A program made the position numbers and the translations under genes. DNA of 64,000 nucleotides from Escherichia phage Ecwhy_1. Below the pieces are notes generated by a model. The model was not told the origin of the DNA, did not search any database, and worked only from the letters and a program-made list of their open reading frames with translations. Below, in pieces: positions 20,784 to 37,643 of the stretch (its first letter is position 1; each line of letters starts with the position of its first letter). The stretch lies in the sequence record MH791411.1, one strand, 5' to 3'.

Positions 20784-22925
20784 ATGGCAGTTTTTTCCAA
20801 TTTAGAAGGGACCATGATGCCAACATTCAAGTTGGGTAAACGTGGTGCTTCTATTAATTTTGTAAACGATTCTGTCGCAATCAAAGACTTTTTAGGCGAA
20901 ACGTTCCTACCTGTTAAGGTGGGAACTCCTAATGACGATGATTCCGCAGTAAACGTTAGGTATCTTGAAGATAACCCAAATGCTTTATTTGGCGTACTTC
21001 CACCAACAAATGACATTGGTAAAAATAACAACACTTATTTTCAAGTTGATTCTGAGGGTATTGTTGATATCTTTGCAAAAACAAATGATGTTTGGGTAAA
21101 ATCATTATACATTAATAAAAATGTCCTTTCCAGTGTTAACGGTGCTGATTATATCGGACTTATTACTGGAGGAACACTTCAACAGGCACAGTTTTACATA
21201 ACTCCAGAAGAGTTTGGTGCAAAAGGTGATGGCATCACTGATGACACGGCGGCGGTTAACGCATGTGCAGTTTATGCTAAAGAACACAAAATCCAAATTC
21301 AAGCTGGTGGTAATTATCGTATCAGAACTGCTGTTTATTTGAATGATATTCAATGGTTTGGTGGTACAATCACTGGTAACGGTGGCACAATGGTATCGGT
21401 ACTGAATAGTACAATCCAACAAGCAACATTAACAGGATGTTATTTAAAATTCTTTGGTGGTAATGGTAAATTTTATTTTAATAAATTTATTAATATTACA
21501 AGTACTGCTGCATTTCTAATGCAAGGTATGACTGAATCAGGTACTATCGACTTCTGCTTTAATGAAATGACACAATGTAAGTACGGTGTTCTTCAGCAAG
21601 GCACTGGTGAGAAAATGACCGTTGGGCGTTATTCATACAACCACATCCATGATATATATGGTGATGCAATTGAATTGAACGTAGTCAACTCACATTACCC
21701 AGACGGATTTGTAATAGAAGGTAACTTGATTGAAAACGTAGATGGTACAAATGCACCAATTCCTCTTTCAAACTGGGGTATTGGTATCGGTGTTGCAGGT
21801 TCTGGTCCTTATGATGTGAATGCTGATGATTCACAATATGTAAAAAAATTCGTTATAAAAAATAACCGCTTGTACAATGTCCGTCAATGTATTCACGTTG
21901 AGTTGGGTAAAGACTTTAAAATTCTCAATAATGAAGTTTATCCATCAACGTTGGTATCAATTGGTACTGGTTTGACAACCGCTGGTGTAATTACTTATGG
22001 TTCTGTTGATTTTATTATTGATGGCCTATCTGGGCATCTATTAAATGATCCATCAGTAACTAACCGTATGGTTTCTATTAACTGGGGCGTAACATCTGGT
22101 AAATTTGCTGGTCCTCCACGAAACTTTAAATTATGTAATCTCCACATTCCTGAGTCGTCTATTATTGTGTATACTTCAGGCTCTGATAATTGGCTAAATA
22201 CTACTGAACTTTCTAATATTACATGTAGTAGAATTCAATGGCGTGGATTGCCGTCATCTTCCAAGTTTAATAATATCAGTACTAAAGAACTTGATGTTAT
22301 TGGACAACACCTTGCAACTGAAGGTGAAGGAGGGGGCTTATATACTCGCTCTAAATATACATATACCAACTGGACTAATTGTGTTGTTCAAGATGATTGT
22401 AACATATCAAAATATAGTTTCTCAAGAATGTATGTTGACCGTATTGACCAATCATCTAATAACTTTAAAGTAACCACTGCAATTGATGGAACGGGTCATC
22501 GTGGACCTGTAGTAATACCTGTAGTTGAACAGTATTACGTGCCTTATGATGTTTTTCCTGGTGGGAGATATTTCCCAGCAGGAACAATTATCCATAAACA
22601 ATCAGGTGGAAAATTTATTGTTACAGTAGGTGGTTCTTTCTTTGGTCGATATGACACAATTAGACAAACAGTTGCAGGACAAACTTATATCGAAGCATTG
22701 GGTGTATCATGGGGTGATAATCAATATGCTAAAGCTGCTGGAACCGAAATCCTAATCACAGGAGCAGGGGAAAATGGCGAAGATTTAAAAACATATATCA
22801 CTAGAGCAGTTTATGTTGTTAATAATGCGTATCGTATCGATATTGCCGATCCGATTGTTACTGCTACCGCAGCAGGGGCATTATTGAAAGCTGCTCAACC
22901 AATAACATATATCACCCTATCTTAA
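20784..22925 (+). CDS. Tailspike-like receptor-binding protein with right-handed beta-helix (pectate-lyase-type) domain, putative depolymerase
   Basis: FYITPEEFGAKGDGITDDTAAVNACAVYAKEHKIQIQAGGNYRI is the hallmark cap of tailspike / pectate_lyase_3 beta-helices. Rung-like IEGNLIENVDG, IKNNRLYNV and ILNNEVY follow. The N-terminal ~60 aa are shared with the next ORF. Confidence 0.7.
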   Translation: MAVFSNLEGTMMPTFKLGKRGASINFVNDSVAIKDFLGETFLPVKVGTPNDDDSAVNVRYLEDNPNALFGVLPPTNDIGKNNNTYFQVDSEGIVDIFAKTNDVWVKSLYINKNVLSSVNGADYIGLITGGTLQQAQFYITPEEFGAKGDGITDDTAAVNACAVYAKEHKIQIQAGGNYRIRTAVYLNDIQWFGGTITGNGGTMVSVLNSTIQQATLTGCYLKFFGGNGKFYFNKFINITSTAAFLMQGMTESGTIDFCFNEMTQCKYGVLQQGTGEKMTVGRYSYNHIHDIYGDAIELNVVNSHYPDGFVIEGNLIENVDGTNAPIPLSNWGIGIGVAGSGPYDVNADDSQYVKKFVIKNNRLYNVRQCIHVELGKDFKILNNEVYPSTLVSIGTGLTTAGVITYGSVDFIIDGLSGHLLNDPSVTNRMVSINWGVTSGKFAGPPRNFKLCNLHIPESSIIVYTSGSDNWLNTTELSNITCSRIQWRGLPSSSKFNNISTKELDVIGQHLATEGEGGGLYTRSKYTYTNWTNCVVQDDCNISKYSFSRMYVDRIDQSSNNFKVTTAIDGTGHRGPVVIPVVEQYYVPYDVFPGGRYFPAGTIIHKQSGGKFIVTVGGSFFGRYDTIRQTVAGQTYIEALGVSWGDNQYAKAAGTEILITGAGENGEDLKTYITRAVYVVNNAYRIDIADPIVTATAAGALLKAAQPITYITLS

Positions 22926-22939
22926 AGGAGATTATAAAA

Positions 22940-23839
22940 ATGGCAGTTTTTTCTAATTTAGAAGGAACCATGAAGAAGACCTTCATACTTGGTAAAAATG
23001 GTGCACAAATTGCCACTAATGGTAATGTTGTTCAAATCCAGAACTACACGGGTACACAACTTCTTCCTGTTTCAGCAGGTGACCCAACCGCAAATACACA
23101 CTTGGTTACATTGGGTTATTTGAATACACATAGCGGTGGTGGTGGTGGTTCCGGTATTTTACGTGGAACTATTGCACCATCTGAATCAATCGGTGTAGAT
23201 GGTGACGCTTACTTCTTAGTTGACAGTACTAATATTATTCAGATCTATATTAAAGACCTTGGTGTTTGGAAGCCTCTCCAAAGCACAACTCCAGGTACTG
23301 ATAGTTCTTACGTTACTACTGAAATCGTTCCTGTATCGGCATTTACATTAGTTCCTGGAACAACAGATCAATATACTTATTCTTTGCCTGAATCAGTACA
23401 TGGTCGTGGTCCAGATATTATGGTTCAGCTACAGGGTGATCCTGGTAACATCCCACTTGACACTGTATTCCAAACTAACGTCACTGTGAGTGGTATTGGT
23501 GACATTACGATTGATGTTATTGGTCAAATCACTGAATACACAAGTGTCAAAGTCAACATCATAGGAGCAACAACAATGACAGTACCTTATAGTAAATTAA
23601 TTAATATAGCAGATTGGGTAGCATCTGGTGATGATTACACCATTACTGTTCCAGCGTCAGAACATAACCAAACACCTGACAATTTGTATATTTCTATATA
23701 TTCAAATAAAACACCAGGCAGTACAGCAGCATCACCATTTGAACTGGTAATAACCGAAACTCAAATTGATGCAAGTGGTAATGTTACATTCACTTCTGAC
23801 GAAGCGTTTAGTGGTAAAATAGTAATTTCCGGTAAATAA
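22940..23839 (+). CDS. Short tail fibre sharing the N-terminal adaptor of the tailspike
   Basis: Begins MAVFSNLEGTM.., the same first 11 residues as ORF 20784. Gly run HSGGGGGSG. RBS aaaGGAGattataaaaATG. Confidence 0.6.
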   Translation: MAVFSNLEGTMKKTFILGKNGAQIATNGNVVQIQNYTGTQLLPVSAGDPTANTHLVTLGYLNTHSGGGGGSGILRGTIAPSESIGVDGDAYFLVDSTNIIQIYIKDLGVWKPLQSTTPGTDSSYVTTEIVPVSAFTLVPGTTDQYTYSLPESVHGRGPDIMVQLQGDPGNIPLDTVFQTNVTVSGIGDITIDVIGQITEYTSVKVNIIGATTMTVPYSKLINIADWVASGDDYTITVPASEHNQTPDNLYISIYSNKTPGSTAASPFELVITETQIDASGNVTFTSDEAFSGKIVISGK

Positions 23840-23848
23840 AAAAAATAG

Positions 23849-23881
23849 TCCAGACTATGATTCATCTAGTCTGGATTTTTT
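23849..23881 (+). terminator. Rho-independent terminator
   Basis: tccagacta-tgattcatc-tagtctgga (9-bp stem) followed by TTTTTT. Confidence 0.75.
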
Positions 23882-23889
23882 ATATCAAT

Positions 23890-23913
23890 AACTAAATATA
23901 TGTATATTAACAA
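23890..23913 (+). promoter_or_regulatory. Conserved promoter/leader box of giant fibre gene 1 (contains TAAATA)
   Basis: aacTAAATAtatgtatattaacaa matches 23 of 24 nt of the box at 28972-28995, at the same distance (44 vs 46 nt) from the start codon. Confidence 0.55.
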
Positions 23914-23957
23914 GGTCAAATGTATTTTATGCTTTTTGCCTATTTGGAGGGAACTAA

Positions 23958-26900
23958 ATGTACTCGATTAAAACAGATCTCGATATAACTGGTGGTGCAA
24001 CGGTTGCTAAAGATCTTCTTGTGAAAGGCGATGCAGTATTCAATAAAAATCTAACAGTTAATGGAACTGTAACTTTTGCTGACGCTGTATTCACTGCAAT
24101 TGAAGCAGAAACTGTAGACATTTCATCTACACTAGATGTTGCTGGTAAAGCATCATTGAATGGTGGAATTGAAGTTCATGGTAATTCCGTAATTGGTAAT
24201 TTGCCTGTTGGTTCTGATACTGCAACGATTAATTCTAATGCACAATTCCAAAGCCCAGTATCAATGGCAGGTAATCTAACACAAACCGCTGGCACTGCTG
24301 TACTAAAAGATACCCAAGTGGCATCAATGGATGTTCTTGGGACTTCTTCATTTAAAGGTAATATTACTGCTGAAACTGGCACTACCGCAGCATTTGACAA
24401 AATAACTGCAACTGATGCAACATTCACAAACACTGCAACTACTGATATCACATCAACTGGAACTGCAAACTTTAAAGATGTGAATATTTCCGGTACACTA
24501 GGTGGAACATTTAGTCTATCTGATGTTAATGCAACAACTCTAACTGTTTCTGGTTTAACCAGTCTACAAGGTGGTGTTACATTAGGTTCCAACATTACTG
24601 GTGTGAATAGTAGTGCAAACTTCCGTGATATTAAAATTGGTTCCAATGCTGCAAACACTAACTACCGTTTGAGCTTTAACTATTCTGCTCCAAGTCTTCG
24701 TCCAACTGTAATTCTACAGAACGAAATCCAATCAGAATTGATGTCTCCAGCTACCCTAAGTGTATTGAAAACTGCATCTTTTGGTGATTCGTCACTATCC
24801 ACTTTTGGTATTACTGGTAATGGTCTAAACAAACTAGATTACCTAACAGTATCTGGTAACTCTGTTCAAGATCCAACAACTCCACTATTACAAGTAACTT
24901 CAGGTAAAACTAAAGTTCATGATTTCGAAGTAACAGGAACTGCAACTATTCCTAACATTGAAAGTACTGGTACTGCTAATTTTAATAACATCAACGTATC
25001 TGGTACACTCGGTGGTACTTTCAGTCTTGATGATATTGAAGCAAACACACTAACTGTATCCGGTTTAACTAGCCTTGTTGGTGGTGTAACTTTAGGTGCT
25101 GATATTTCCGGTGCTAATAGTACTGCTAATTTTAAAGCAGTAAGTTTAGGACAAAACGCCGCCGATGCTAACGTTAAGTATGGTTTTGCTTATTCTGCCC
25201 CTGGTGCTCGCCCAACTGTAATTCTACAAAATGAAATTCAGTCTGAGCTAGTATCTCCAGCAGTACTTAATGTACAAAAAACTGCAACCTTTGGTGATGC
25301 ATCTCTTGCAACCTATGGTATCACAGGTAACGGTCTAAACAAACTAGATTATCTATCTATTACTGGTAATGGTACACAAAGTCCAGCTACCCCACAACTA
25401 CAAGTTGCTGGTAAATCAGTACTAAATGATGTTGAATTCACTGGTACTGTAACTGGTCTAACTGTTGATGTGAGTGGACAAGATCTAACTCCTAAATCAG
25501 TAGATGCTGCTGAAGCAATCAAAGGTCAAACCCTTGAATCAGTTGGTCAAACCACAGTAGGAACTAACCTACAAGTTGGTGGAACTGCTAATGTTGTTGG
25601 TGCACTAACTGGTACTGCTGCTACCTTCACTGGTGATGTAAGTGCTGCTAAAGGTACTTTCAGTGGTGATGTTAGCGTTACTGGTCAAACTGTAACTGTA
25701 CGTGATTTAGTAGTAACTGGTACAACTACTGGTGTAACTGCCCAAGCTGATGTTGATGGTCTTGATATCGCCCCAAATAAAGTTGATGTTACAACAACAC
25801 TATCTGTTGCTGGGGACACTACTTTAGCTGGCCTAACTGCTAGTTCAGTAACCAGTACTGGTGATGTTACTGGTGCGTCTGTATCTGGTAATACAGTAAC
25901 TGCGGCTGGGGCACTATCTGGTGGTTCTCTTGCAGTAACTGGTGCTGGTTCTATGGCTTCACTAACTGTTCCAAGTATTACTGGTGACACTACTTTTGCT
26001 AATAACGTAACTATTACTGGAACACTAACTCCGAGTAGTATAGATTTAAGCACTACTGATGTAAGTGCTGCTTCTTTAACAACTACTGGTAACGTAACTG
26101 TTGGTGGTTCTCTTGCAGTAACTGGTGCTATTGATTTGTCTGCTGCTGATGTAGTAACAAAATCAGTTAGTGCAACTAACCCAAGTACATTTGGTGTAAT
26201 TAATGCATCTTCTGTTGCCGCAACTGGTGACGTTTCAGGTGGCACACTAACTACTACTGGTGCAGCGAAAGTAGGAACACTAACTAGTACTGGTGTAGTA
26301 TCTGGTTCGCGTTTGTCTTCTGGTACTGCAACAATCACAACTTCTGTAACAGTTCCAACTTTACAAGCTGAAGCTGCTGGTGCTGGTACACTAAATCTAG
26401 CAAGTAATGTTGTCGCGGCAAAAGATCTAACTGTCACTGGTGTATTCAAACCTGAAGGTGGTCTTGATCTAACAACTGTTGATATTACTGCAAACTCACT
26501 AACTACTACTGCTGATGTTAATGTTGGTGGAAACTTAGTAGTTGATGGTACTTTTGACCTAAGTGCTGCTGATGTGTCTGTGAAATCTCTTGCAAGTGCA
26601 GAGACAATTACAAGTGCTGGTGTTATTACCGTTACCGATTCAACCAATACTAGTTCGTTACCTAAAATTACTTCAACTGATGCAACACTCTTTACAGTAA
26701 ATGCAGGTACTATTAATGCAACTGGTAACAGTGTACTACAAAGTGTATCAGCTACTCAAGTAACTGCTAATAGTGCTGAATTTTCTGGTGGTGGCCTTGG
26801 TCTTCAAGTTGATAATGATGCAAACGTTGGTGGTGCATTATCTGTTGGTGGCATTGCAACTGTTGGTTCTTTAACAACAACTGCTGCTTCTCTTAATATT

Positions 26901-28892
26901 GCAAAAAATACTGCAATCACTGGTGATTTAGCTGTATCTGGCACACTAACTGCTGGTTCAATCGACCTAAGCAATACTGATGTAACCGTTAAATCTCTTG
27001 ATTCACTAGGTAACGCACACATTGCTGGTAACCTAACTGTAGATGGTGCATTCGACTTAAGTGCAACTAACCTTGTAGCTGCAAGTCTAGCAAGTACTGG
27101 TTCTACTACTGTTGGAACTGATCTAGTACTAACAACTGGTGTTGTGACTGGTAGCCCAGCTATCTCTGGTAATACAACAATCGGTGGAACTCTTGGTGTA
27201 ACTGGTGCTGTTAACCTAACTGATATTGTTAATATCGGTAAGAAAGTAACAGTGAGTACTGGTGGTATTCAGGTAGTTGATGGTGGTATCAATACTAACA
27301 CAATTAACGTTTCTGGTGCTTCTACTCTAGCAGGAACTTCCATTACTGGAACTTTAGGTGTAACTGGTGCTTCTACTCTAGCAGGTGTATCTGCGACATC
27401 ACTAACAGTTTCTGGTGACAGTACTGTTCAGAAACTAACTGTCCAAGGTGAATTGATCCCACAAGGTGGTCTTGACCTAAGCGGTGCAGACATTACTGCT
27501 AATAGTCTAACTACTGCGACAACTATCAATGCAACTGGCCTAAGTACTCTAAGTGGTGGTGTTAGTACTTCTACTGTGACTGCATCTGGTCTAGCAACTG
27601 TTGGAAGTTTAACTTCTACTGCAAACGCATCAGTTGGTGGTAATTTGGGTGTAACTGGAACTCTAGGTGTTACTGGTGCAACTACTGTATCTTCACTAAC
27701 AGCTACTGGTGCAGTGAAAACTGGTACAACCCTAACTGTTGGTACTCCAGTTGGTGAACAACCTGAAACTGTACAGATCATTCCAGATACTTATATTGCT
27801 GGTAAATTGCGTGTAATCGGTGGTATTAACGCTGAAATCGACGTAAGTGGTCAAACACTAGAACCATATGCAATTGAAGCTGCTGCAACACTATCTGCTG
27901 TTGGTAACATTACTTCTGGTGCAACCATCGTTTCTAAAGCTGCAACAATTGGTGATGTTGGTTCACAAAACAACAACCTAACTGTTAATGGTAACGTAGT
28001 AACTAATGGTGACTTCACCGTTACTGGTGTACTAAATGCACAATTGAACCAAGCAGATTCCGATGTAGCTGTTAAGTCTTTGACTGCAACTAATAACGTT
28101 GCGGCTGGTACTTCAATCACTGCTGGAACATCCATCACTGCATCAGGCTTACTAAAAGGTAATTCGTTAGAAGTCACCACTACTGGTTCATTTGGTGGTG
28201 CAGTAACTATGTCAAGTGGTGCAAACATCACTGGTACTGTTGGTATCACTGCTGGTGACCTAACAGTAGGTGGTAATATCTCTGCAACTGGTACTGCTGG
28301 ATTCGGTGCAACAACCGTTTCTACCATTACAACATCAGGTTTAGCTACCCTTGCAAGTGCATCTGTAACTGGTGCTCTAACTGTAGGTGGTACATTAACT
28401 GCAAATGGTAACACTGTGATTGGTGATGCTGCTGCTGATACTTTAACTGTAAATGCAACATCTACATTTAAAGAGAACGCAACATTTGATAAGAACCTAA
28501 CAGTGACTGGTTCTATTAACACCACCACTGCAAACTTCACTACAAACAACATGGTAACTAAGAAATATTCTGTTATCCCTGCTAGTGTTACTGCTTCTAC
28601 TGCTGCTGTAGGTGGCACTTGGACACCAGATGGTACTACTAACGTATATCGCTTAACTCTTGACCAAAGTGTTACAATGGATTCCATCGCGGGTCTAATT
28701 GGTAGTGGTCAAGCATGTTCAGTGTATATCTATGTAACTCCATCTGTTGCTGATACTACTTTCACCTTCGGTGGTGCATACTCTGTAGTTTCTGGTACAG
28801 TAAGTGCTGTAGTTGGTCAAACAAGTATTATCCAAGTAATCTATGATGGTTTCAGTACTGTGTTTGATACCTTCGTTGCACAACGTGTATAA
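23958..28892 (+). CDS. Giant repeat-rich fibre protein 1 (1,644 aa)
   Basis: N-terminus MYSIKTDLDITGG is shared with ORF 29042. Contains an internal ~170-aa tandem duplication. Has hundreds of degenerate Thr/Gly/Ser/Val-rich repeats (..LTVSGxSTLxGGVTL.., ..DLSAADVxVKSL..) and a distinct ~110-aa C-terminal domain. RBS tttGGAGGGaactaaATG. Confidence 0.8.
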   Translation: MYSIKTDLDITGGATVAKDLLVKGDAVFNKNLTVNGTVTFADAVFTAIEAETVDISSTLDVAGKASLNGGIEVHGNSVIGNLPVGSDTATINSNAQFQSPVSMAGNLTQTAGTAVLKDTQVASMDVLGTSSFKGNITAETGTTAAFDKITATDATFTNTATTDITSTGTANFKDVNISGTLGGTFSLSDVNATTLTVSGLTSLQGGVTLGSNITGVNSSANFRDIKIGSNAANTNYRLSFNYSAPSLRPTVILQNEIQSELMSPATLSVLKTASFGDSSLSTFGITGNGLNKLDYLTVSGNSVQDPTTPLLQVTSGKTKVHDFEVTGTATIPNIESTGTANFNNINVSGTLGGTFSLDDIEANTLTVSGLTSLVGGVTLGADISGANSTANFKAVSLGQNAADANVKYGFAYSAPGARPTVILQNEIQSELVSPAVLNVQKTATFGDASLATYGITGNGLNKLDYLSITGNGTQSPATPQLQVAGKSVLNDVEFTGTVTGLTVDVSGQDLTPKSVDAAEAIKGQTLESVGQTTVGTNLQVGGTANVVGALTGTAATFTGDVSAAKGTFSGDVSVTGQTVTVRDLVVTGTTTGVTAQADVDGLDIAPNKVDVTTTLSVAGDTTLAGLTASSVTSTGDVTGASVSGNTVTAAGALSGGSLAVTGAGSMASLTVPSITGDTTFANNVTITGTLTPSSIDLSTTDVSAASLTTTGNVTVGGSLAVTGAIDLSAADVVTKSVSATNPSTFGVINASSVAATGDVSGGTLTTTGAAKVGTLTSTGVVSGSRLSSGTATITTSVTVPTLQAEAAGAGTLNLASNVVAAKDLTVTGVFKPEGGLDLTTVDITANSLTTTADVNVGGNLVVDGTFDLSAADVSVKSLASAETITSAGVITVTDSTNTSSLPKITSTDATLFTVNAGTINATGNSVLQSVSATQVTANSAEFSGGGLGLQVDNDANVGGALSVGGIATVGSLTTTAASLNIAKNTAITGDLAVSGTLTAGSIDLSNTDVTVKSLDSLGNAHIAGNLTVDGAFDLSATNLVAASLASTGSTTVGTDLVLTTGVVTGSPAISGNTTIGGTLGVTGAVNLTDIVNIGKKVTVSTGGIQVVDGGINTNTINVSGASTLAGTSITGTLGVTGASTLAGVSATSLTVSGDSTVQKLTVQGELIPQGGLDLSGADITANSLTTATTINATGLSTLSGGVSTSTVTASGLATVGSLTSTANASVGGNLGVTGTLGVTGATTVSSLTATGAVKTGTTLTVGTPVGEQPETVQIIPDTYIAGKLRVIGGINAEIDVSGQTLEPYAIEAAATLSAVGNITSGATIVSKAATIGDVGSQNNNLTVNGNVVTNGDFTVTGVLNAQLNQADSDVAVKSLTATNNVAAGTSITAGTSITASGLLKGNSLEVTTTGSFGGAVTMSSGANITGTVGITAGDLTVGGNISATGTAGFGATTVSTITTSGLATLASASVTGALTVGGTLTANGNTVIGDAAADTLTVNATSTFKENATFDKNLTVTGSINTTTANFTTNNMVTKKYSVIPASVTASTAAVGGTWTPDGTTNVYRLTLDQSVTMDSIAGLIGSGQACSVYIYVTPSVADTTFTFGGAYSVVSGTVSAVVGQTSIIQVIYDGFSTVFDTFVAQRV
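24453..25472 (+). repeat. Internal tandem duplication (2 x ~510 nt, ~170 aa) in fibre gene 1
   Basis: STGTANFKDVNISGTLGGTFSLSDVNATTLTVSGLTSL...GITGNGLNKLDYLTVSGN recurs 170 aa later as STGTANFNNINVSGTLGGTFSLDDIEANTLTVSGLTSL...GITGNGLNKLDYLSITGN. Boundaries are approximate. Confidence 0.7.
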
Positions 28893-28910
28893 CATTTTAA
28901 ATTAATAATT

Positions 28911-28943
28911 AAAGCCAACTTTTTTAGTTGGCTTTTTCTTTTG
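28911..28943 (+). terminator. Rho-independent terminator
   Basis: aaagccaac-ttttttta-gttggcttt followed by ttcttttg. Confidence 0.7.
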
Positions 28944-28971
28944 TATTAGATAATAGTGTTTTTGTGAATTA

Positions 28972-28995
28972 AACTAAATATAAGTATATTAACAA
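28972..28995 (+). promoter_or_regulatory. Conserved promoter/leader box of giant fibre gene 2 (contains TAAATA)
   Basis: aacTAAATAtaagtatattaacaa is a duplicate of the box at 23890-23913. Confidence 0.55.
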
Positions 28996-29041
28996 AAGAT
29001 GGGTTATGAATATATAGTTCATCGTTATAGGAGGGGACTCT

Positions 29042-32000
29042 ATGTACTCGATTAAAACGGATCTTGATGTATCTGGTAATTCCACGGTAGGTAAGGATCT
29101 TTTGGTCAAAGGTAATGCAGTATTCAGTAATGACCTAACGGTTAATGGGGAAGTGTCTTTTGCTAACGCAGTATTCACTGCAATTACCGCTGGTTCTGTG
29201 AATGTCACAGGTGCATTGGATGTTGCTGGTAAGGCAACCTTATCCGGTGGTGCTGATGTTTCAGGTGCTGCGACATTTGCAGGAAACATTACTGCTGCTG
29301 GCGGCACAACTGCAAAATTTGATAACTTAGAAGCTAATTCAGGATCATTTGATTCTGTTGAATCAACTGATATTACTTCAACTGGCACAGCAACTTTTAA
29401 AGATGTAAACATTTCTGGTACACTTGGTGGTACTTTTAATCTTTCTGATATTAATGCTACAACACTTAATGTGTCTGGTGCTTCAGCACTAACTGGTTCA
29501 GTCACATTGGGTGCAAATATCACTGGTCTTGCAAGTACTGCAAACTTCCGTGATATTCGTATCGGGCCTAATGAAGCAGGTCAAGCATATAGACTAAACT
29601 TTGGTTACACCGTTCCAGGACAACGACCAACCGTTCTTCTACAGAACGAAGTTCAATCCGAACTAATGTCACCAGCTAAGTTGAATGTTCTACAAACTGC
29701 AACATTTGGTGATTCTTCACTTTCAACTTACGGTATTACAGGTAATGGTTTAAACAAATTAGATTATGTAACTATTTCTGGTAACGCAATTCAATCACCA
29801 ACCACTCCTTTACTTGAAGTAACTAAAGGTAAAACTAAAGTTGTTGATTTAGAAGTAACTGGTGTAGCAACTATTCCTAATATCGAAAGTTCTGGTACTG
29901 CAAACTTTAACAACATCAACGTATCTGGTACTATTGGTGGTAGTTTTGATTTAGATGATATCCAAGCAACAACATTATCAGTATCCGGTGCTTCAGCACT
30001 AACTGGTGCAGTTACATTGGGTGCAAACATCACTGGTCTAGCAAGTACTGCAACATTCAAAGCAATCAATTTGGGTCAAAATACCGCTGATGCTAACGTT
30101 AAGCTAGGTTTTGCATATACTGCACCTAGTGCACGTCCAACAGTCTTGTTAGCAAACGAAGTTCAATCTGAACTAATGTCTCCTGCTAAGTTGAACGTTC
30201 TACAAACTGCAACCTTCGGTTCTGCTGCACTATCTACCTATGGTATTACTGGTAATGGTCTAAACAAATTAGATTATCTAACAATTACTGGTAACGCAAC
30301 ACAAAACCCTGCTACTCCACAACTTCAAGTTGGTGGTAAAGCAATTCTTAATGATGTTGAATTTACAGGTACTGTAACTGGCCTAACTGTTGATGTGAGT
30401 GGACAAGATCTAACTCCTAAATCAGTAGTTGCTGCTGAAGCAATCAAAGGTCAAACTCTTGAATCAGTTGGTCAAACAACTGTAGGTTCATCTCTACAAG
30501 TTGGCGGTACTGCAACTGTTACTGGTGCATTATCTGCTGCCTCTGGTACTTTCAGTGGTGATGTTAGTGGTTCTAAAGGTATCTTCAGTGGTAGCGTATC
30601 CGGTACAAGTGCAACCTTTACTGGGGATGTTAGCGGTGATAACGCAACCTTTAGTGGCGATTTATCTGCTGTAGCTGGCACTTTCAGTGGTGATGTAACC
30701 GTAACTGGTCAAACAATCACTGTTAAAGACTTGGTAGTAACTGGAACTTCAACTGGTGTAACTGCAATCGCTGACGTTGACGGTCTTGATATTGCTCCAA
30801 ACAAAGTTGATGTTACAACAACTCTATCTGTTGCTGGTGAATCAACTCTTGCTGGTATTACAGCAACTTCAATCAATAGTACTGGTGCAATTGCAGGTAC
30901 TGCAATTTCTGGCTCTACTATTACAGCAACTGGTGAAATTTCTGGTGCATCATCTGTAGTAACTGGTCTTTCTAAATCTGGTAGCGTTGAAACTGGTGCT
31001 CTAAAGGCATCTTCTGTTGAAACTGCAATCATTAGCAACACTGCTGGTGTGTCAATAACAAACAACACTTCCATTGCAGGTAATCTATCTGTGACTGGAA
31101 CTGTTACCCCTGGTGCAATTGACCTAAGCACTACTGATATTGATGCTAAGTCCCTAACTACAACTGAAGGTGCTAACATTGGTGGTAACCTAGTTGTTGC
31201 AGGTACAGTTGATCTAAGTGCTGCTGACGTTGCTGTTAAATCTCTAACCAGTACTGGTGCAGTTATTAGTTCTGAAGGTACTGTAAGTAGTGTTCTACCT
31301 AAACTTTCCAGTACTGAAGCTAATATTACCACAGTAACTGCAACCACTGCAAATGCTACCACACTAAATGTAACTGGTACATCAACTCTAGCTGGTGTTA
31401 ACGCTTCTGGTGCTATTACTTCTGCAACTAACATTACCGCTACTGGTGTATTAAAAGGTGCATCTGTTGAAACTGCGTCAATCAGCAATGCTGATGGTGT
31501 AGCAATTAACAATAACACTACAATCACTGGTAATTTGGACGTATCTGGGACATTGACCCCTGGTGCAATTGACCTAAGCACTACTGATATTAGTTCTAAG
31601 TCTCTAACCACAACTGAAGGTGCTACAATTGGTGGCGATCTTGTGGTAGCAGGTACTGTTGACCTAAGTGCTGCTGATGTGTCTGTGAAATCTCTTGCAA
31701 GTGCAGAGACAATTACAAGTGCTGGTGTTATTACAGTTTCGGATACAGTGAATTCTAGCACTCTACCAAAACTAATTACTACTGATGCAACTATTGGTGC
31801 TGTCCATGCAGCTACTATTGAAACAACTGGTTCAAGTACACTAAAACAAGTATCTGCTACTGAAGTAACAGCTACAAGTATTGTACTAAATTCAGTTGGT
31901 GAAGGTTTACGTGTTGACAATAATGCAAACATTAATGGTATATTAAGTGTTAATAATATTACTTCTACCAATGATACTATTGCAATTGCGAAAAGTGCTG

Positions 32001-34741
32001 CTATTACTGGTGATCTGACCGTATCTGGAACTGTTACCCCTGGTGCAATTGACCTAAGTACTACCGATATTAGTTCTAAATCCCTAAGTACTACTGAAGG
32101 TGCTACAATTGGTGGTGACCTAGTTGTTAATGGTTCAATTGATTTAAGTTCTTCCAATGTTTCAGCAATTACCCTTGCTAGTTCTGGTAATACTACCGTT
32201 GGTGGTAACCTAGTACTAACAACTGGTGTTGTAACTGGCAGCCCATCTGTATCTGGCAACCTTTCAGTTGCAGGTACTGCGGCAGTAACTGGTGCAACTA
32301 CCCTAACTGATATCGTAAATATCGGTAAGAAAGTAACTGTAAGCACTGGTGGTATTCAAGTAGTTGCAGGTGGTATTAATACCGACGCTATATTAGTATC
32401 CGGTGATACAACTTTAAACAACACTACTGTAAACACTACCTTAAATGTAACTGGTCAAAGTACAGTAGCTGCACTAAGTGCTGCATCTTTGAATGTATCT
32501 GGTGATAGTACTGTTCAAAAACTAACAGTTGAAGGTGAATTGGTTCCACAAGGTGGTATCGACCTAACTGGTGCAGATATTTCTGCTAATAGTCTTGCAA
32601 CTGCTTCAACAATCACTGCAACTGGACTAAGCACACTAAGTGGTGGTGTAAGTACTACTAATGTTACTGCATCTGGTACAGTGAATGCTGGTAGTTTGGA
32701 TGTTACTAACAACGCAACCGTTGGTGGTAATTTGGGTGTAACTGGTTCATTAACTTCTGGTCCATTGAGTGTAACAGGTATTGCGAATATTACTGGTGTA
32801 ACAACTGTTGGTTCATTGGTTTCCGGTGCAGTATCTGGTAGTACTGGTACATTTAGTTCAACATTAGGTGTAACTGGTGCAGCTACATTTGACAATGACG
32901 TAACTGTTGAAGGTGTATTCACCCCAGCAGGTGGTTTAGACCTAACAACTTCTGATATTACGGCTAAGAGTTTGTCAGTATCTGAAACTATTCACTCTGA
33001 TGGTGCAGCTTCCTTTGGTGGTAACACAACAGTAGGTGGTACATTGGGTGTAACTGGTGCAGTAACTGCTCCATCGGCAACCCTAAGTGGTACTGGTACT
33101 GCACTAGCAGTAACTAATAATGCAACTATTGGTGGTACATTAGGTGTAACTGGTCAAGCATCACTTGGTTCTATAGTAACTTCTGGCGTTTCTGCAACAA
33201 GTGGCTCTTTCAGTACTACTCTTGGCGTTACTGGTGCTGCGACATTTGGTAACGATGTAACTGTAGTTGGAACACTAACTCCTGGTAGCTTAGATCTAAC
33301 TGGTGCAGATATCTCTGCTAAAACACTAACTCTATCTGAAACATTAAATGCAACAGGTAATACTACCCTTGGTGGAACATTAGGTGTAACTGGTTTAGCA
33401 ACAATTGGTGGAACACTAACGTCTGGTGCAGTAACTGCTCCATCTGCAACCTTGAATGGTTCAGGTACTGGTCTAGCAGTAACTAACAACGCAACCGTTG
33501 GTGGAACATTAGGTGTAGTTGGTCAAACAACACTAGGTTCTGTTAAAACTGGTGCAACTCTAACAGTTGGTACACCATTAGGTGAGCAGCCTGAAACTGT
33601 ACAGATTATGCCAGACACTTATATTGCTGGTAAACTACGTGTTGAAGGTGGTATTAACGCAGATATCGATGTTGGTGGACAAACACTAGAACCGTTTGCA
33701 GTAATAGCATCTGATTCTTTATCTTCTGCTGGTAATATTACTGCTGGTGCAGCAATTATTTCAAGTTCTGCAACAATTGGTGAAGTCGGTTCACAAAACA
33801 ACAACCTAATCGTTAATGGTAACGTTGTAAACAACGGTAACTTCACTGTTACTGGTGTACTAAATGCACAATTGAACCAAGCAGATTCCGATGTAGCTGT
33901 TAAGTCTTTGACTGCAACTAACAACGTATCTGCTGGAACCACATTAAGTGCAGGTACTGCAATTACTGCTGGTACTTCCATCACTGCAACTGGATTACTT
34001 AAAGGTAATACTTTAGAAGTTACTACTACTGGTTCATTTGGTGGTTTAGTAACTATGTCAAGTGGTGCAAATATCACTGGTGCAATGACCACTGCGGGTA
34101 ACATAACAGTGGGTGGCAATATCACTGCAACTGGTACTGCTGGATTCGCTGCAACAACCGTTTCTACAATTACAACAACAGGTTTGGCTACAATTGCAAG
34201 TGCATCCATTACTGGTAACGCAACAGTAGGTGGAACACTAACTGCGAATGGTAACGTAACATTAGGTGACGCAGCGGCAGACGTTCTAACCGTTAATGCA
34301 ACTTCATCATTTAAAGAAAATGCTGTGTTTGATAAGGCAGTAACAGTAACTGGTGCACTAACCACTACTAATGCTAACTTAACTACTACAACAGTAACTA
34401 CCAAAAAGTATGATGTAATCCCAACTCAAGTTACATCATCAGTAATTGCTCCAACCGGAACATGGACTCCAGATGGTACAAGTAACGTATACTTCATCAC
34501 TCTAGACCAAGATACCACGTTGGCTCCAATTACTGGCCTAATTGGTGGTGGTAAAGCTGCATCAGTATACATCTATGTTAAACAAGATACAACTGGTAAC
34601 AGAAACTTTACAACTGATGGTACTTATGCTGTTGTTGATGGTGAACTAAACAAAACTGCTGGTAGTGTGACCATTTACCAAGTAATTTATGATGGTGTAA
34701 GTCCAGTTACTGATTTGTTCATTGCACAACGTACTGCTTAA
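29042..34741 (+). CDS. Giant repeat-rich fibre protein 2 (1,899 aa), paralog of ORF 23958
   Basis: Same N-terminus (MYSIKTDLDVSGN), same duplicated 170-aa module, same repeat style. The C-terminal ~110 aa are divergent (TKKYDVIPTQV...FIAQRTA vs TKKYSVIPASV...FVAQRV). RBS ataGGAGGGGactctATG. Confidence 0.8.
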   Translation: MYSIKTDLDVSGNSTVGKDLLVKGNAVFSNDLTVNGEVSFANAVFTAITAGSVNVTGALDVAGKATLSGGADVSGAATFAGNITAAGGTTAKFDNLEANSGSFDSVESTDITSTGTATFKDVNISGTLGGTFNLSDINATTLNVSGASALTGSVTLGANITGLASTANFRDIRIGPNEAGQAYRLNFGYTVPGQRPTVLLQNEVQSELMSPAKLNVLQTATFGDSSLSTYGITGNGLNKLDYVTISGNAIQSPTTPLLEVTKGKTKVVDLEVTGVATIPNIESSGTANFNNINVSGTIGGSFDLDDIQATTLSVSGASALTGAVTLGANITGLASTATFKAINLGQNTADANVKLGFAYTAPSARPTVLLANEVQSELMSPAKLNVLQTATFGSAALSTYGITGNGLNKLDYLTITGNATQNPATPQLQVGGKAILNDVEFTGTVTGLTVDVSGQDLTPKSVVAAEAIKGQTLESVGQTTVGSSLQVGGTATVTGALSAASGTFSGDVSGSKGIFSGSVSGTSATFTGDVSGDNATFSGDLSAVAGTFSGDVTVTGQTITVKDLVVTGTSTGVTAIADVDGLDIAPNKVDVTTTLSVAGESTLAGITATSINSTGAIAGTAISGSTITATGEISGASSVVTGLSKSGSVETGALKASSVETAIISNTAGVSITNNTSIAGNLSVTGTVTPGAIDLSTTDIDAKSLTTTEGANIGGNLVVAGTVDLSAADVAVKSLTSTGAVISSEGTVSSVLPKLSSTEANITTVTATTANATTLNVTGTSTLAGVNASGAITSATNITATGVLKGASVETASISNADGVAINNNTTITGNLDVSGTLTPGAIDLSTTDISSKSLTTTEGATIGGDLVVAGTVDLSAADVSVKSLASAETITSAGVITVSDTVNSSTLPKLITTDATIGAVHAATIETTGSSTLKQVSATEVTATSIVLNSVGEGLRVDNNANINGILSVNNITSTNDTIAIAKSAAITGDLTVSGTVTPGAIDLSTTDISSKSLSTTEGATIGGDLVVNGSIDLSSSNVSAITLASSGNTTVGGNLVLTTGVVTGSPSVSGNLSVAGTAAVTGATTLTDIVNIGKKVTVSTGGIQVVAGGINTDAILVSGDTTLNNTTVNTTLNVTGQSTVAALSAASLNVSGDSTVQKLTVEGELVPQGGIDLTGADISANSLATASTITATGLSTLSGGVSTTNVTASGTVNAGSLDVTNNATVGGNLGVTGSLTSGPLSVTGIANITGVTTVGSLVSGAVSGSTGTFSSTLGVTGAATFDNDVTVEGVFTPAGGLDLTTSDITAKSLSVSETIHSDGAASFGGNTTVGGTLGVTGAVTAPSATLSGTGTALAVTNNATIGGTLGVTGQASLGSIVTSGVSATSGSFSTTLGVTGAATFGNDVTVVGTLTPGSLDLTGADISAKTLTLSETLNATGNTTLGGTLGVTGLATIGGTLTSGAVTAPSATLNGSGTGLAVTNNATVGGTLGVVGQTTLGSVKTGATLTVGTPLGEQPETVQIMPDTYIAGKLRVEGGINADIDVGGQTLEPFAVIASDSLSSAGNITAGAAIISSSATIGEVGSQNNNLIVNGNVVNNGNFTVTGVLNAQLNQADSDVAVKSLTATNNVSAGTTLSAGTAITAGTSITATGLLKGNTLEVTTTGSFGGLVTMSSGANITGAMTTAGNITVGGNITATGTAGFAATTVSTITTTGLATIASASITGNATVGGTLTANGNVTLGDAAADVLTVNATSSFKENAVFDKAVTVTGALTTTNANLTTTTVTTKKYDVIPTQVTSSVIAPTGTWTPDGTSNVYFITLDQDTTLAPITGLIGGGKAASVYIYVKQDTTGNRNFTTDGTYAVVDGELNKTAGSVTIYQVIYDGVSPVTDLFIAQRTA
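29378..30403 (+). repeat. Internal tandem duplication (2 x ~513 nt) in fibre gene 2
   Basis: STGTATFKDVNISGTLGGTFNLSDINATTLNVSGASAL... recurs as SSGTANFNNINVSGTIGGSFDLDDIQATTLSVSGASAL.... Boundaries are approximate. Confidence 0.7.
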
Positions 34742-34760
34742 TAATTATAATAAAAAAAAC

Positions 34761-34784
34761 GGTGTCATCAATTATGGTGACACC
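34761..34784 (+). terminator. Hairpin after fibre gene 2, possible weak terminator
   Basis: ggtgtca...tgacacc stem preceded by an A8 run but not followed by a T-run on the plus strand. Confidence 0.3.
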
Positions 34785-34807
34785 ATCTTAACAAGTGAGG
34801 TAGATAT

Positions 34808-35587
34808 ATGTTTACATATGTAAAAGGTAGTTCTAAAGAAAATTATGAATTGGGTAACATCATCTCCAACCCAGTTGGTGTTAAGGGTTTAAAAGAACGC
34901 CCTGGGGCAACTCCAGATGATGAACAAACATATCGTTATTTGTACAGTGATATCCGTGCACTTTATGGTATTTCAAGTAAAGATGGTTCTGAAATTGAAC
35001 CTAATAACGCTGTTCGCAAAGAAGAGGGTTTCTGGTGGTTGGAATATAAGAATGTTGGTAATGTGAACGCAATTAATGAGAATTTGGAATATATTAAACT
35101 ACAAGATAGTAATCAACCAGTCATCACATTCTTAGAAGAAGCAGAAGGTGAATATAAAGAGTTAACAGTACTGAAAACTTATAATTATGTTGATATGGAC
35201 ATTGCAGCAGTTAAATCTGATCTGAAAGCACGCACAGTATCATCTCGTAGTGATCGTATTAATGCTGGTTATATGTTTAACGGTCATCGTTATAGTACTG
35301 ATCTAGCTGGTCGTCAAATGCTTCTTAATTATTATACACAAGTAACTTCCGGTTCTGATAGCGTTTCGATTTTCCTTGATGACGCAATTGTAAAACTATC
35401 TGCTGCTGAAATGACTCAACTATACACTGAAGCATTTGCTATGGTTGAATCCCTATTTGCAGAGTGTAATAAGCAATGTGCTGACATTGATGCAGTTCCT
35501 GATGCTGATGAAGATGCAATTTATAAAGCACAACAGGCGGCTGTATGGGTATATGAAGGTATTGATATTCCTGAGCGTATTCGTTAA
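34808..35587 (+). CDS. Putative tail-fibre accessory/assembly protein (DUF4376-like C-terminal half)
   Basis: RSDRINAGYMFNGHRYSTDLAGRQMLLNYY...KLSAAEMTQLYTEAFAMVESLF resembles the recalled DUF4376 pattern found next to fibre genes. Lies between two fibre genes. RBS gtGAGGtagatatATG. Confidence 0.45.
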   Translation: MFTYVKGSSKENYELGNIISNPVGVKGLKERPGATPDDEQTYRYLYSDIRALYGISSKDGSEIEPNNAVRKEEGFWWLEYKNVGNVNAINENLEYIKLQDSNQPVITFLEEAEGEYKELTVLKTYNYVDMDIAAVKSDLKARTVSSRSDRINAGYMFNGHRYSTDLAGRQMLLNYYTQVTSGSDSVSIFLDDAIVKLSAAEMTQLYTEAFAMVESLFAECNKQCADIDAVPDADEDAIYKAQQAAVWVYEGIDIPERIR

Positions 35588-35678: not shown

Positions 35679-37643
35679 ATGAGTATAAATCGAATTAGAG
35701 GTGATGGTGGTGTAATTATAGATAGTCAGGCATTTCTAGAATTACCTAAAGCACCGACTAAAGAAACCGCTGATGTGGTTAGATCAGGGATGATTAGATA
35801 CAATAAAGGATGGAAAGCATTTGAAGGTGTACTAGACTTTGAAGATGGTTCAATGGCATATCGACGTTTTGCAAACCTAGATGCAAACGGTAAACTTCTT
35901 ACTTCCCAATTACCAGATTCAGTAACTAGTGGTTTACAATTTGTTGGTACATATAATCCCATCCCAGATGATATCGATCCACCTTTAGCACAAACTCCAC
36001 TACCAGCACCATCACCATCGCTTAATGGTGATTATTATGTCGTTCGTGGTATAATGGATGCCGCACAAGCACATTATGAAGCAAATAATCCACAAACAAG
36101 TCCTGTTACATTTACACCTACAAATCCAACTGGACAAGGTAATTGGATTGAAATTTTATATTATGTTGACTCTAATCCAAATATATCTGGTGCTAAACTA
36201 GTAACATACGCTTTTGCTAGAATTATTACTGCATCTATTCCCAGTACTGGACATGATGGCCTTGAAAATTTAGCAACAGATACTGACTTGACCAAACCAT
36301 TTGCATCTGGTGTTCCAATGAACCAAACTGCACTTTCAGATGGTGATTGGATTATTATAACTGAAGATAAGAATATACGTCTTCGTCAGTCAAGAACAAG
36401 CATTTCCGCTGCTTCAGTATTATATGACAATACTGTAATGATTGCAAATCATCGCCAATTTAGAACAAACGCAGGGACCGTTCAAACATCCATAGATAAC
36501 GTTGTGATTGAGTGTTTACGTAGAACTGGCGATTCCATGTATAATGATGGAACAGACGGCTCTGGGCGTTTTGGGGTGGTGTATGGCAGTGCAGCAGCAC
36601 CAGCATTGACATTTAATAATAATCCGTTTGACCCAACGAACAACCCAGGTAATGACCCAACTAAGTGGTCCGATGCTAATACTGGTATATTCCATCCAGC
36701 AGATGATGCAATTGGTTTTACAACAGCCGGAACTGAGCGTGTTAGAATTAATAATGGAACATTAACATTATTCCAAACTACCGCTACACCAGCAGCTACG
36801 CCAGTAATACGTTTTGATAATGCATCAAACACAAACGTAGGGATAAGTGCAAGTAGTAATATTATTTCTTTAAGTTCAATGAATAAAGTTCAAGTTGAAT
36901 TTAAAAATGGTGAATCACATTTTCATGGAAATATTATTGTAGATGGATCAACATCACTAACTGGTGATTTAAACGCAGGTAACATCACTGCCAGCGGGAA
37001 TTTAGTTGTTAAAGGTAATACAACACTAGGCGACACTACTGGTGACACTATTACAGTTAATGGTGTTAGTACTTATAATGCAAATACTAATTTCAATGGA
37101 ACTAATAACAAATTCAAAAACATAAACTTACTAGAGAATGGTGTATTCACATTAGAAAGTACTACAAACCAAAGTGATATAAAACTACTTGGTGCAGACT
37201 TACGTTTCACTATGGGAAGTTATGCTGATGTAAGTATATATGATAACGGTGTTATTCGTACTCGTTTCAACCGATATGGTATTCAATTACCAGTACTGGC
37301 TACAATTGATAACTCAGTTGGTGTTGATGGTATGATTGCATACTCAAATACCGAACGTACATCGATGCAGAAGGTCCAAGGACAATGGGTTCCAATTGGT
37401 TCTGGTTCTGTACGTACTGACCCGTTTACTGCGTCAGCGTGGGTTTTAAACGGCTCATATTACACATTAACAGTAACTGCTAGTAACATAGTAACTGCTG
37501 AAATTCAAGAACTCGTAAGTACTGGTGTTTACACTCGTGTTGAAGTTGATAGTGTTACATTCAATGGAACAAGCGTAGTGTTCAGTATTCCTGCAACTCC
37601 TGATGTGAGATTTGCCGGACGTACACTGGTTACATTAAGATAA
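35679..37643 (+). CDS. Tail fibre protein
   Basis: 654-aa beta-rich ORF in the fibre cluster. N-terminal GMIRYNKGWKAFEG-type fibre shoulder. Asn/Thr/Gly-rich repeats (GNIIVDGSTSLTGDLNAGNITASGNLVVKGNTTLG). Confidence 0.55.
   Translation: MSINRIRGDGGVIIDSQAFLELPKAPTKETADVVRSGMIRYNKGWKAFEGVLDFEDGSMAYRRFANLDANGKLLTSQLPDSVTSGLQFVGTYNPIPDDIDPPLAQTPLPAPSPSLNGDYYVVRGIMDAAQAHYEANNPQTSPVTFTPTNPTGQGNWIEILYYVDSNPNISGAKLVTYAFARIITASIPSTGHDGLENLATDTDLTKPFASGVPMNQTALSDGDWIIITEDKNIRLRQSRTSISAASVLYDNTVMIANHRQFRTNAGTVQTSIDNVVIECLRRTGDSMYNDGTDGSGRFGVVYGSAAAPALTFNNNPFDPTNNPGNDPTKWSDANTGIFHPADDAIGFTTAGTERVRINNGTLTLFQTTATPAATPVIRFDNASNTNVGISASSNIISLSSMNKVQVEFKNGESHFHGNIIVDGSTSLTGDLNAGNITASGNLVVKGNTTLGDTTGDTITVNGVSTYNANTNFNGTNNKFKNINLLENGVFTLESTTNQSDIKLLGADLRFTMGSYADVSIYDNGVIRTRFNRYGIQLPVLATIDNSVGVDGMIAYSNTERTSMQKVQGQWVPIGSGSVRTDPFTASAWVLNGSYYTLTVTASNIVTAEIQELVSTGVYTRVEVDSVTFNGTSVVFSIPATPDVRFAGRTLVTLR

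Follow-up and report, generated by a model that had tools for sequence, protein, structure and literature searches.

The locus between positions 23,890 and 34,741 of a 64,000-nt stretch of Escherichia phage Ecwhy_1 DNA (sequence record MH791411.1; the whole stretch is called the window below) raises the question of what two adjacent giant open reading frames (ORFs) encode, and of what it would mean for a virion to be supplied with both products. A first-pass annotation, made from the letters of the window, had described them as a tandem pair of repeat fibres, and their sizes and coordinates were borne out by our analysis: gene A and gene B lie next to each other on the plus strand and together span 10.6 kb, approximately one sixth of the window.

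23958..28892, plus strand: gene A, a 1,644-amino-acid (aa) fibre of 160.7 kDa and pI 4.1; the extra paralogue, with a clade-specific tip.
29042..34741, plus strand: gene B, a 1,899-aa fibre of 184.3 kDa, in the position of phAPEC6 gp256, 121Q 571 and CBB_226, directly 5' of the DUF4376 gene.

The ORF translations confirmed that both proteins start with MYSIKTDLD, and the pI is near 4.1 for A and B alike. Their composition is as biased as had been proposed, with threonine, glycine, alanine, serine and valine making up 62% of each protein and aromatic residues 2.8-3.5%. The accompanying statement that there are almost no charged residues was too strong, however, as D, E, K and R are infrequent but still account for 9.8-9.9%. 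The best explanation that we can offer is that A and B are tandem copies, since diverged, of the giant fibre that virions of RaK2-like jumbo phages carry and whose gene lies between those of a ~300-aa virion protein and a DUF4376 protein. That they belong to this family and are fibres of the virion is very probable. The full model, in which the proteins would also form trimers, be expressed from their own promoters and stand on the virion as sheath hairs, we hold to be moderately likely, while the placement as hairs, taken by itself, falls a little short of an even chance.

Membership in the family was indicated by several comparisons. The window is 98.9% identical over its full length to the Escherichia phages fEgEco12, WPEC5 and EC.P1 and 98.3-98.5% identical to CMSTMSU and WPEC3, all of which are jumbo myophages of 356-386 kb related to 121Q and PBECO4. 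The reading as fibre genes was supported by the only PHROG match of the two proteins, PHROG 4549 'tail fiber protein', which was recovered with E = 3.9e-181 for A and 1.8e-205 for B in 7 and 9 matched stretches, respectively. In precomputed annotations of a large protein collection, PF26209 (Phage_phiTE_241_C) is assigned to 23 of 26 homologues, and by homology to the name-giving phiTE_241, A and B are predicted to carry a C-terminal domain of the same type. The only relative among PDB sequences was likewise phiTE_241, a 793-aa 'putative tail fiber protein' of Pectobacterium phage phiTE (chain g of 9CUY/9MJN). When a profile of 25 family members was used as the query, 9CUY_g was recovered with E = 6.3e-74 in 5 stretches, indicating that the shaft is homologous as well. 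Chain g is most likely the phiTE long tail fibre of PMC11972413, judging from its length and sequence character. A match of the repeats to a well-characterised family was one outcome that the first-pass annotation had foreseen as speaking against it; what was found is a named family, although one whose function is not well characterised.

The distribution of the family is also informative. Single-copy orthologues are present in 121Q-type phages, CBB, GAP32, Serratia BF, the Erwinia Eneladusviruses, Yersinia fHe-Yen9-04, Salmonella Munch/PHA46 and Xanthomonas XaC1. The N-terminal 70 aa were found in 58 phage records, all of RaK2-like jumbo phages and none of an Alcyoneusvirus (RaK2, K64-1). Since two copies occur in about 11 of the 58 cap-bearing records, the tandem pair is a feature of a clade. 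The phAPEC6 orthologue is gp256 (1,841 aa, 180.38 kDa) and the CBB orthologue is CBB_226. A 180.38 kDa tail fiber protein was identified in phAPEC6 virions with 15 unique peptides (PMC7247149), and CBB_226 in CBB virions with 10 peptides (PMC5259590). With both orthologues being virion proteins, the absence from virions that would have spoken against a fibre is not what was found. CB7_36 was likewise identified in virions with 19 peptides (PMC7344957), its correspondence to phiTE_241 being assumed. Because the family is named, the genes are in GenBank at approximately 99% identity and orthologues have been confirmed in virions by proteomics, the feature is an already known one and its interest is modest.

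The closest likeness is to the genes of the gp256 type. Proteins phAPEC6 gp256, 121Q 571, that of PBECO4 and CBB_226 share with A and B the N-terminal cap, a pair of 170-aa modules, the type of shaft and the C-terminal domain, and their genes occupy the same position before the DUF4376 gene and the thymidylate synthase block. The identity of gp256 is 62% to A and 67% to B. The phages with gp256-type genes differ in having a single copy in place of the tandem pair, their shafts differ from those of A and B through repeat expansions, and the tip of A is only 51% identical to that of the gp256 type. The more distant phiTE_241 is alike in its homologous shaft and C-terminal domain of approximately 110 aa, but at 793 aa it has less than half of the length of A or B, and its residues 14-171, which form a helical 'rip-cord' bundle and a globular domain and serve for docking on the baseplate wedge, have no counterpart in either. 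In keeping with this difference, the first 520 aa of A find their match in residues 424-938 of P0025 and 441-925 of P0026, two Certrevirus-type proteins, and not in the N-termini of these. A and B differ from the Certrevirus-type sequences from the first residue on. The missing docking module concerns the mode of attachment, not membership in the family.

How the two copies relate to each other was examined by global alignment, which bore out the tandem gene duplication: A and B align end to end with 67.7% aa identity over 1,583 positions. Only 64% of the identical residues share the same codon, indicating that the duplication is old. The claim that only the last ~110 aa differ strongly proved wrong, since divergence is mosaic along the alignment. 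Identity is 55.5% over the last 110 aa, 38% over A663-839 and 52% over A940-1039; in addition, 53 aa near the N-terminus are found only in A and ~265 shaft aa only in B. The parts of the two genes that can be told apart are the following.

23958..24167, plus strand: gene A, N-terminal cap (aa 1-70), the presumed virion-docking end.
24417..25430, plus strand: gene A, tandem pair of 170-aa modules (aa 154-321 and 324-491), from self-comparison, with DNA repeats at 510-nt spacing.
25431..28541, plus strand: gene A, shaft (aa ~492-1528), with 2-/6-residue periodicity and recurrent DL[ST]..D[VI]...S[LVI] units.
28542..28889, plus strand: gene A, C-terminal tip (aa 1529-1644), of phiTE_241_C type and confidently modelled.
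29348..30352, plus strand: gene B, tandem pair of 170-aa modules (aa 103-267 and 273-437), from self-comparison and DNA repeat families.
30510..30706, plus strand: gene B, array of a 33-nt unit (11 aa, ..F[ST]GDVSG..), with 5 register-shifted copies versus 2 in A, at offsets 11, 22 and 33.
30992..32204, plus strand: gene B, three shaft super-repeats of ~150-160 aa (B645-750, 795-900 and 973-1053).
32741..33535, plus strand: gene B, specific ~265-aa shaft extension, from a ~120-aa internal duplication (offsets 119-123).
34391..34738, plus strand: gene B, C-terminal tip (aa 1784-1899), 93% identical to the phAPEC6 gp256 tip.

An alignment of 25 homologues revealed that M1, Y2, S3, I4, K5, D7 and L8 of the N-terminal cap are invariant. 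The bodies of the proteins had been described as hundreds of short degenerate repeats, a description that we could not reproduce, as the quoted motifs occur only 0-2 and 3-7 times, and blastp self-comparison of A and of B recovered no internal repeats. What was found instead was a hydrophobic periodicity, together with a hierarchy of longer repeats that a windowed BLOSUM62 diagonal scan recovered. The periodicity comprises a beta-strand-like 2-residue component together with lags of 6, 12 and 18 residues (z = 3-5 versus shuffles). At the higher level, the 170-aa modules of A are not shaft-like and may form knobs, while the ~120-aa duplication in B accounts for its extra length.

The C-terminal tip has a history of its own. 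Within B, identity to gp256 is 93% over the last ~65 alignment columns and 87% over the preceding 150 columns, and ~65-70% over the rest of the protein. The tip of A, in contrast, is 51% identical to both the B and the gp256 tips, indicating that the tip is a module with a separate history. The proposal of swapped tips therefore holds insofar as the C-terminal domain of ~115 aa has evolved separately, but not insofar as the tips were taken to be the sole divergent part. A1529-1641 aligns to residues 682-791 of 9CUY_g with E = 1e-27, and B aligns similarly. An AlphaFold2 (AF2) monomer model of the C-terminal 355 aa, built on a 27-sequence alignment, was confident for the last ~105 aa, with a predicted local distance difference test (pLDDT) score of 88-96. 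The modelled tip is beta-rich, with 7 or 8 strands and 1 short helix, and was read as a predicted small beta-sandwich. Its sequence is rare (19 representative clusters among 1.8 billion, nearly all at or near the extreme C-terminus), and the fold recurs at the C-termini of many predicted phage fibres. The strands are conserved across host genera and two loop regions are variable.

Fold prediction, which had been recommended for the repeats, was thus successful for the tip but not for the shaft or the N-terminal 520 aa. The shaft part of the C-terminal 355-aa model reached a pLDDT of 45-66. For the N-terminal 520 aa, a 25-sequence alignment gave a mean pLDDT of 53.8 and a predicted template modelling score of 0.27, and this model was not used. 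Foldseek against the PDB returned nothing at E <= 0.001. The resemblance described earlier as vaguely beta-helix or bactofilin-like fared differently in its two halves, the 2-/6-residue periodicity being consistent with a beta-helix and the bactofilin family (PF04519) giving no match for A or B at E <= 0.1 in Pfam. The periodicity of the shaft would accordingly suit a beta-helix, no confident fold having been obtained. The similarity of A and B to bactofilins, left-handed beta-helices and YadA-like adhesins consists of the 6-residue hydrophobic periodicity and the Gly/Thr/Val-rich units; it is one of composition and periodicity only, reaching no Pfam threshold for these families. YadA-type repeat or domain families of Pfam gave no match for A or B at E <= 0.1, and an NCBIfam search of both proteins gave none. 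The sole Pfam match of A and B, to MmoB_DmpM at E = 0.016, was not meaningful.

Each gene was further said to have been duplicated together with its promoter, leader and terminator, and the regions around the two genes bear on this claim in different ways.

23847..23877, plus strand: hairpin and T-run 3' of the upstream 299-aa gene, isolating gene A (RNA fold -15.9 kcal/mol, z = -4.9).
23890..23913, plus strand: box of gene A, AACTAAATATATGTATATTAACAA, with the degenerate T4-type late-promoter core cTAAATA.
28911..28935, plus strand: intrinsic-terminator-like hairpin and T-run 3' of gene A (RNA fold -13.1 kcal/mol, z = -3.9).
28972..28995, plus strand: box of gene B, AACTAAATATAAGTATATTAACAA.
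34761..34784, plus strand: hairpin 3' of gene B, with an A8 run before it and no plus-strand T-run (RNA fold -15.5 kcal/mol, z = -6.1).

The upstream box was confirmed as nearly identical, with 23 of 24 positions shared and its end 44 nt (A) and 46 nt (B) before the ATG. Its consensus, AACTAAATATA[T/A]GTATATTAACAA, occurs twice in the 64-kb window against 0.00 copies expected by chance. The strong Shine-Dalgarno site was also confirmed, GGAGGG lying 6 nt before the ATG in A and B, with GGAGGGG at 5 nt in B as well. Beyond the box and the Shine-Dalgarno site, however, the two leaders do not align, and the three hairpins are mutually unrelated in sequence. On this evidence the terminators and most of the leader appear not to have been duplicated with the genes, or to have been replaced since. 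The statement that each gene has its own terminator stands in part: hairpins with T-runs are found before and after A, but the hairpin after B has no T-run on the plus strand. Being preceded by A8 and having no downstream T-run, this hairpin has the look of a terminator serving the opposite strand, although the region (34742..34795) contains the end of no converging minus-strand gene.

The sequence TATAAATA is the T4 late-promoter consensus. The core of the A and B boxes, aCTAAATA, matches it at 6 of 8 positions, and in two distant relatives a terminator hairpin is followed by exact TATAAATA, then GGAGGG and then the fibre gene. Upstream of phAPEC6 gp256, a pattern search found the same box with 2 mismatches, ending 20 nt from the ATG. 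The TAAATA-type core and the same or a related element in relatives support a promoter-like element in the box. Because its core resembles the T4 late consensus, we read the box as a putative late promoter and start of the transcript. Moreover, its 23/24 identity despite an old and diverged duplication points to selection on a regulatory element. (A)TAAATA also occurs 6-56 nt 5' of structural ORFs at 1524, 19035 (minus strand), 19606, 35679, 49878 (minus), 50744 (minus), 51818 (minus) and 55579 (minus); this distribution would fit a T4-like class of late promoters across the structural module.

On the reading that we favour, each gene would be transcribed late from its own TAAATA-type promoter in the 24-nt box and translated from its strong Shine-Dalgarno site. 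Each protein would trimerise to give a thin, segmented beta-helical fibre of roughly 90-125 nm, the conserved N-terminal cap docking on the tail and the C-terminal domain lying at the free end. With a shared docking end and unlike shafts and tips, the pair could provide two binding specificities or reaches per virion or population, and the fibres would make the first, reversible contact with the cell surface. They are also the best candidates at present for the unassigned 'hairy' sheath fibres of phAPEC6, CBB, 121Q and fEgEco12.

The length estimate depends on the scaling employed. The phiTE value of 512 A per 793 aa gives 106 nm for A, 123 nm for B and ~100 nm for CBB_226, while a rougher scaling from the 42-nm fibres of CB7 (PMC7344957), on the assumption that those fibres are the ~790-aa homologue, gives 88 nm and 102 nm for A and B; scaling as a single-chain solenoid gives only 44-51 nm. 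In CBB, the six baseplate fibres are short, at 28.6 nm, while the hairs on the sheath measure 119 +/- 10 nm (PMC5259590). Short baseplate fibres plus 'hairy' fibres are also described for phAPEC6 (PMC7247149) and fEgEco12 (PMC13070987), and hair-like fibres for 121Q (PMC7824862). Since accounts of those virions mention no long fibre at the baseplate and our length estimates agree with the hairs, A and B are the best hair candidates at hand. All four of the hairy phages (phAPEC6, CBB, 121Q and fEgEco12) have the fibre gene. RaK2 is not reported as hairy (PMC5259590), and the fibre gene is missing from its syntenic locus and, by a search with the N-terminal cap, from elsewhere in RaK2 as well. 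The presence of the gene in hairy phages, the lack of both in RaK2 and an N-terminus unlike that of phiTE_241 together make the hairs the most economical home for a fibre of 1,550-1,900 aa. The case is correlative and rests on few, mutually related phages.

Several observations weigh against this assignment. None of the papers found by literature search links the hairs to a particular gene, and the authors of the phAPEC6 and CBB studies leave the hair gene open (PMC7247149, PMC5259590). GAP32 has an orthologue, yet no hairs are reported for it, and, by the reasoning of the CBB authors, a gene for hairs is one that GAP32 should lack (PMC5259590). In phAPEC6, fibres are seen at three levels of the sheath and on the capsid, yet there is only one such gene. 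The gene also sits in a baseplate/tailspike neighbourhood. With respect to the wider model, presence in the virion is known from orthologues and would be carried over to A and B of an Ecwhy_1-type phage; the AF2 monomer models of the shaft and N-terminus are of low confidence, so that a trimer and a shaft fold for A and B would rest on phiTE. Receptor binding by the tip is putative as well: its core is conserved across phages of different host genera and would also fit a purely structural or folding role.

The same neighbourhood and the GAP32 observation (PMC5259590) would be expected if A and B were conventional long tail fibres anchored at the baseplate, as phiTE_241 is presumed to be in phiTE, folded along the resting sheath and triggering baseplate rearrangement on receptor binding, the hairs being something else. 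The only solved relative indeed belongs to the baseplate and was built into its map, 9CUY; in phiTE, wedge and sheath initiator are both bound by the long tail fibre (PMC11972413), the genes lie among tail and baseplate genes adjoining a tailspike, and 'long tail fibre' is the label in GenBank. However, the docking region of phiTE_241 (residues 14-171) has no counterpart in A and B, which begin directly with shaft-like sequence, and the only baseplate fibres described from electron micrographs of phAPEC6, CBB and fEgEco12 are short ones (PMC7247149, PMC5259590, PMC13070987), of which those of CBB, at 28.6 nm, are far below any estimate for a fibre of 1,550-1,900 aa. We regard attachment at the baseplate as rather unlikely, if worth serious attention. 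T4 offers a functional analogue in its long tail fibre (gp34-gp37), which is long, thin, trimeric and beta-rich with a receptor-binding tip at its distal end and has given GenBank its 'long tail fiber proximal subunit' label. The T4 fibre is a four-protein assembly, whereas A and B would each be a single-polypeptide fibre, and neither single-sequence nor family-profile searches of PDB sequences returned a T4 fibre chain at E <= 1.

The relationship to phiTE suggests a further function, in which the fibres would catch a rotating flagellar filament, as in flagellotropic Certrevirus phages, the phage then reaching the cell body. Both phiTE and CR3 carry the homologous fibre and depend on the flagellum (PMC7344957, PMC11972413), and the Salmonella jumbo phage Munch has an orthologue; a Munch-resistant mutant is fully resistant to the Chi-like phage Season12 too (PMC8273493). 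But Munch plating drops ~100-fold on every resistant mutant tested, making the signal unspecific (PMC8273493), and in phiTE it is the short tail fibre that the authors consider the likelier flagellum binder (PMC11972413). The hint is also weakened by phages of non-flagellated Klebsiella, such as KpS8, which carry related fibres with the same C-terminal fold. No receptor data for Asteriusvirus were found in the literature. Flagellum binding is in our view improbable. We give equally little credence to a shaft made of a single-chain beta-solenoid (bactofilin or left-handed beta-helix, 18 residues per turn), by which the proteins would be monomeric rods of ~45-50 nm serving as decoration or spacer. 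Such a solenoid would explain the hydrophobic periodicity at 6, 12 and 18 residues, and the homologue P0010 comes close to the bactofilin family, with 27.7 bits against a gathering cut-off of 27.9. A and B themselves have no bactofilin match at E <= 0.1, though, and 6-residue units would suit an intertwined triple beta-helix just as well. In addition, the phiTE homologue is trimeric in cryo-electron microscopy (cryo-EM), with an extended beta-helix and flexible regions predicted from cryo-EM and AlphaFold 3; residues ~180-793 of phiTE_241, the part homologous to A and B, have no experimentally resolved structure (PMC11972413).

The genes surrounding the fibres form a cassette. In CBB and two metagenomic contigs the same order is kept, comprising a tail protein, a ~300-aa virion protein, the giant fibre, DUF4376 and a ~650-aa structural protein. 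At the syntenic locus of RaK2 (NC_019526.1 26725-52248) the flanking genes are kept and there is neither a fibre nor a DUF4376 gene; a 116-aa virion protein (ORF061w) is all that stands in the interval filled in the E. coli phages by tailspike, 299-aa protein, giant fibres and DUF4376 gene. Since RaK2 holds only ORF061w there, the cassette as a whole seems to have been inserted or deleted between tail genes that are conserved. The neighbours in the window are as follows.

1524..11525, plus strand: 3,333-aa ORF with an end-to-end match to PHROG 10938 'virion structural protein'.
20784..22925, plus strand: 713-aa tailspike-like protein, PHROG 6117 'colanic acid degradation'.
22940..23839, plus strand: 299-aa virion protein, just 5' of gene A.
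34808..35587, plus strand: DUF4376 protein (Pfam E = 2.8e-9), which follows gene B and not gene A.
35679..37643, plus strand: 654-aa structural protein, of which a short stretch resembles bactofilin repeats (Pfam E = 0.039, sub-threshold).

The 713-aa and 299-aa proteins have in common an N-terminal domain of ~110 aa that starts with MAVFSNLEGTM (41% identity, E = 2e-19), which suggests a common docking site. A tailspike gene was not seen in the cassette of CBB or of the two metagenomic relatives. The DUF4376 protein accompanies the fibre gene in these three and is missing together with the fibre at the RaK2 locus. Since the CBB counterpart, CBB_225, was identified in virions (16 peptides, 68% coverage), it may be a partner of the fibre rather than a chaperone. 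The 654-aa protein is conserved in all RaK2-like phages, including RaK2 in a shorter form (ORF060w), and may be a conserved tail component beside a variable fibre cassette. The 3,333-aa ORF probably corresponds to phAPEC6 gp245 (382 kDa, 17 peptides) and to the ~10-kb virion structural gene that is cut off at the edge of the RaK2 locus.

Deposited annotations of these genes are inconsistent. In close phages A and B are labelled 'long tail fiber proximal subunit', 'tail fiber protein', 'hypothetical', 'colanic acid-degrading protein' or 'flagellar hook-length control protein', and relatives bear 'YadA domain', 'autotransporter' or 'polymer-forming cytoskeletal'. We rejected 'flagellar hook-length control protein', 'YadA', 'autotransporter' and 'gp34', for which there was no supporting match. 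Some database entries break the fibre genes up into several short coding sequences: vB_Ec-M-J has three 'tail fiber protein' features (one of 1,049 aa) and CMSTMSU nine 'flagellar hook-length control protein' features. These split coding sequences are probably sequencing frameshifts or annotation artefacts in repetitive DNA. Antisense ORFs of up to 545 aa are also present within both fibre genes (24176..34404, minus strand, for example 30709..32346 and 25685..26647). We rejected them as genes, as their Val/Pro/Ala/Thr-rich translations look like by-products of biased codon content.

A single name, phiTE_241-type giant tail fibre, could replace the inconsistent labels in GenBank, and the domain map of the differences between A and B is useful for host-range engineering in coliphages that are candidates for therapy. 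That the giant fibres are the hairs or whiskers seen on the sheath of Asteriusvirus and Mimasvirus jumbo phages, the fEgEco12 clade having two kinds of them, we consider a real possibility that stays on the doubtful side. The two-copy clade is a natural experiment on the gene behind the sheath hairs. If the assignment is true, the duplication would give the virion of the fEgEco12 clade two kinds of hair, unlike in length and tip, as a long-range capture net.

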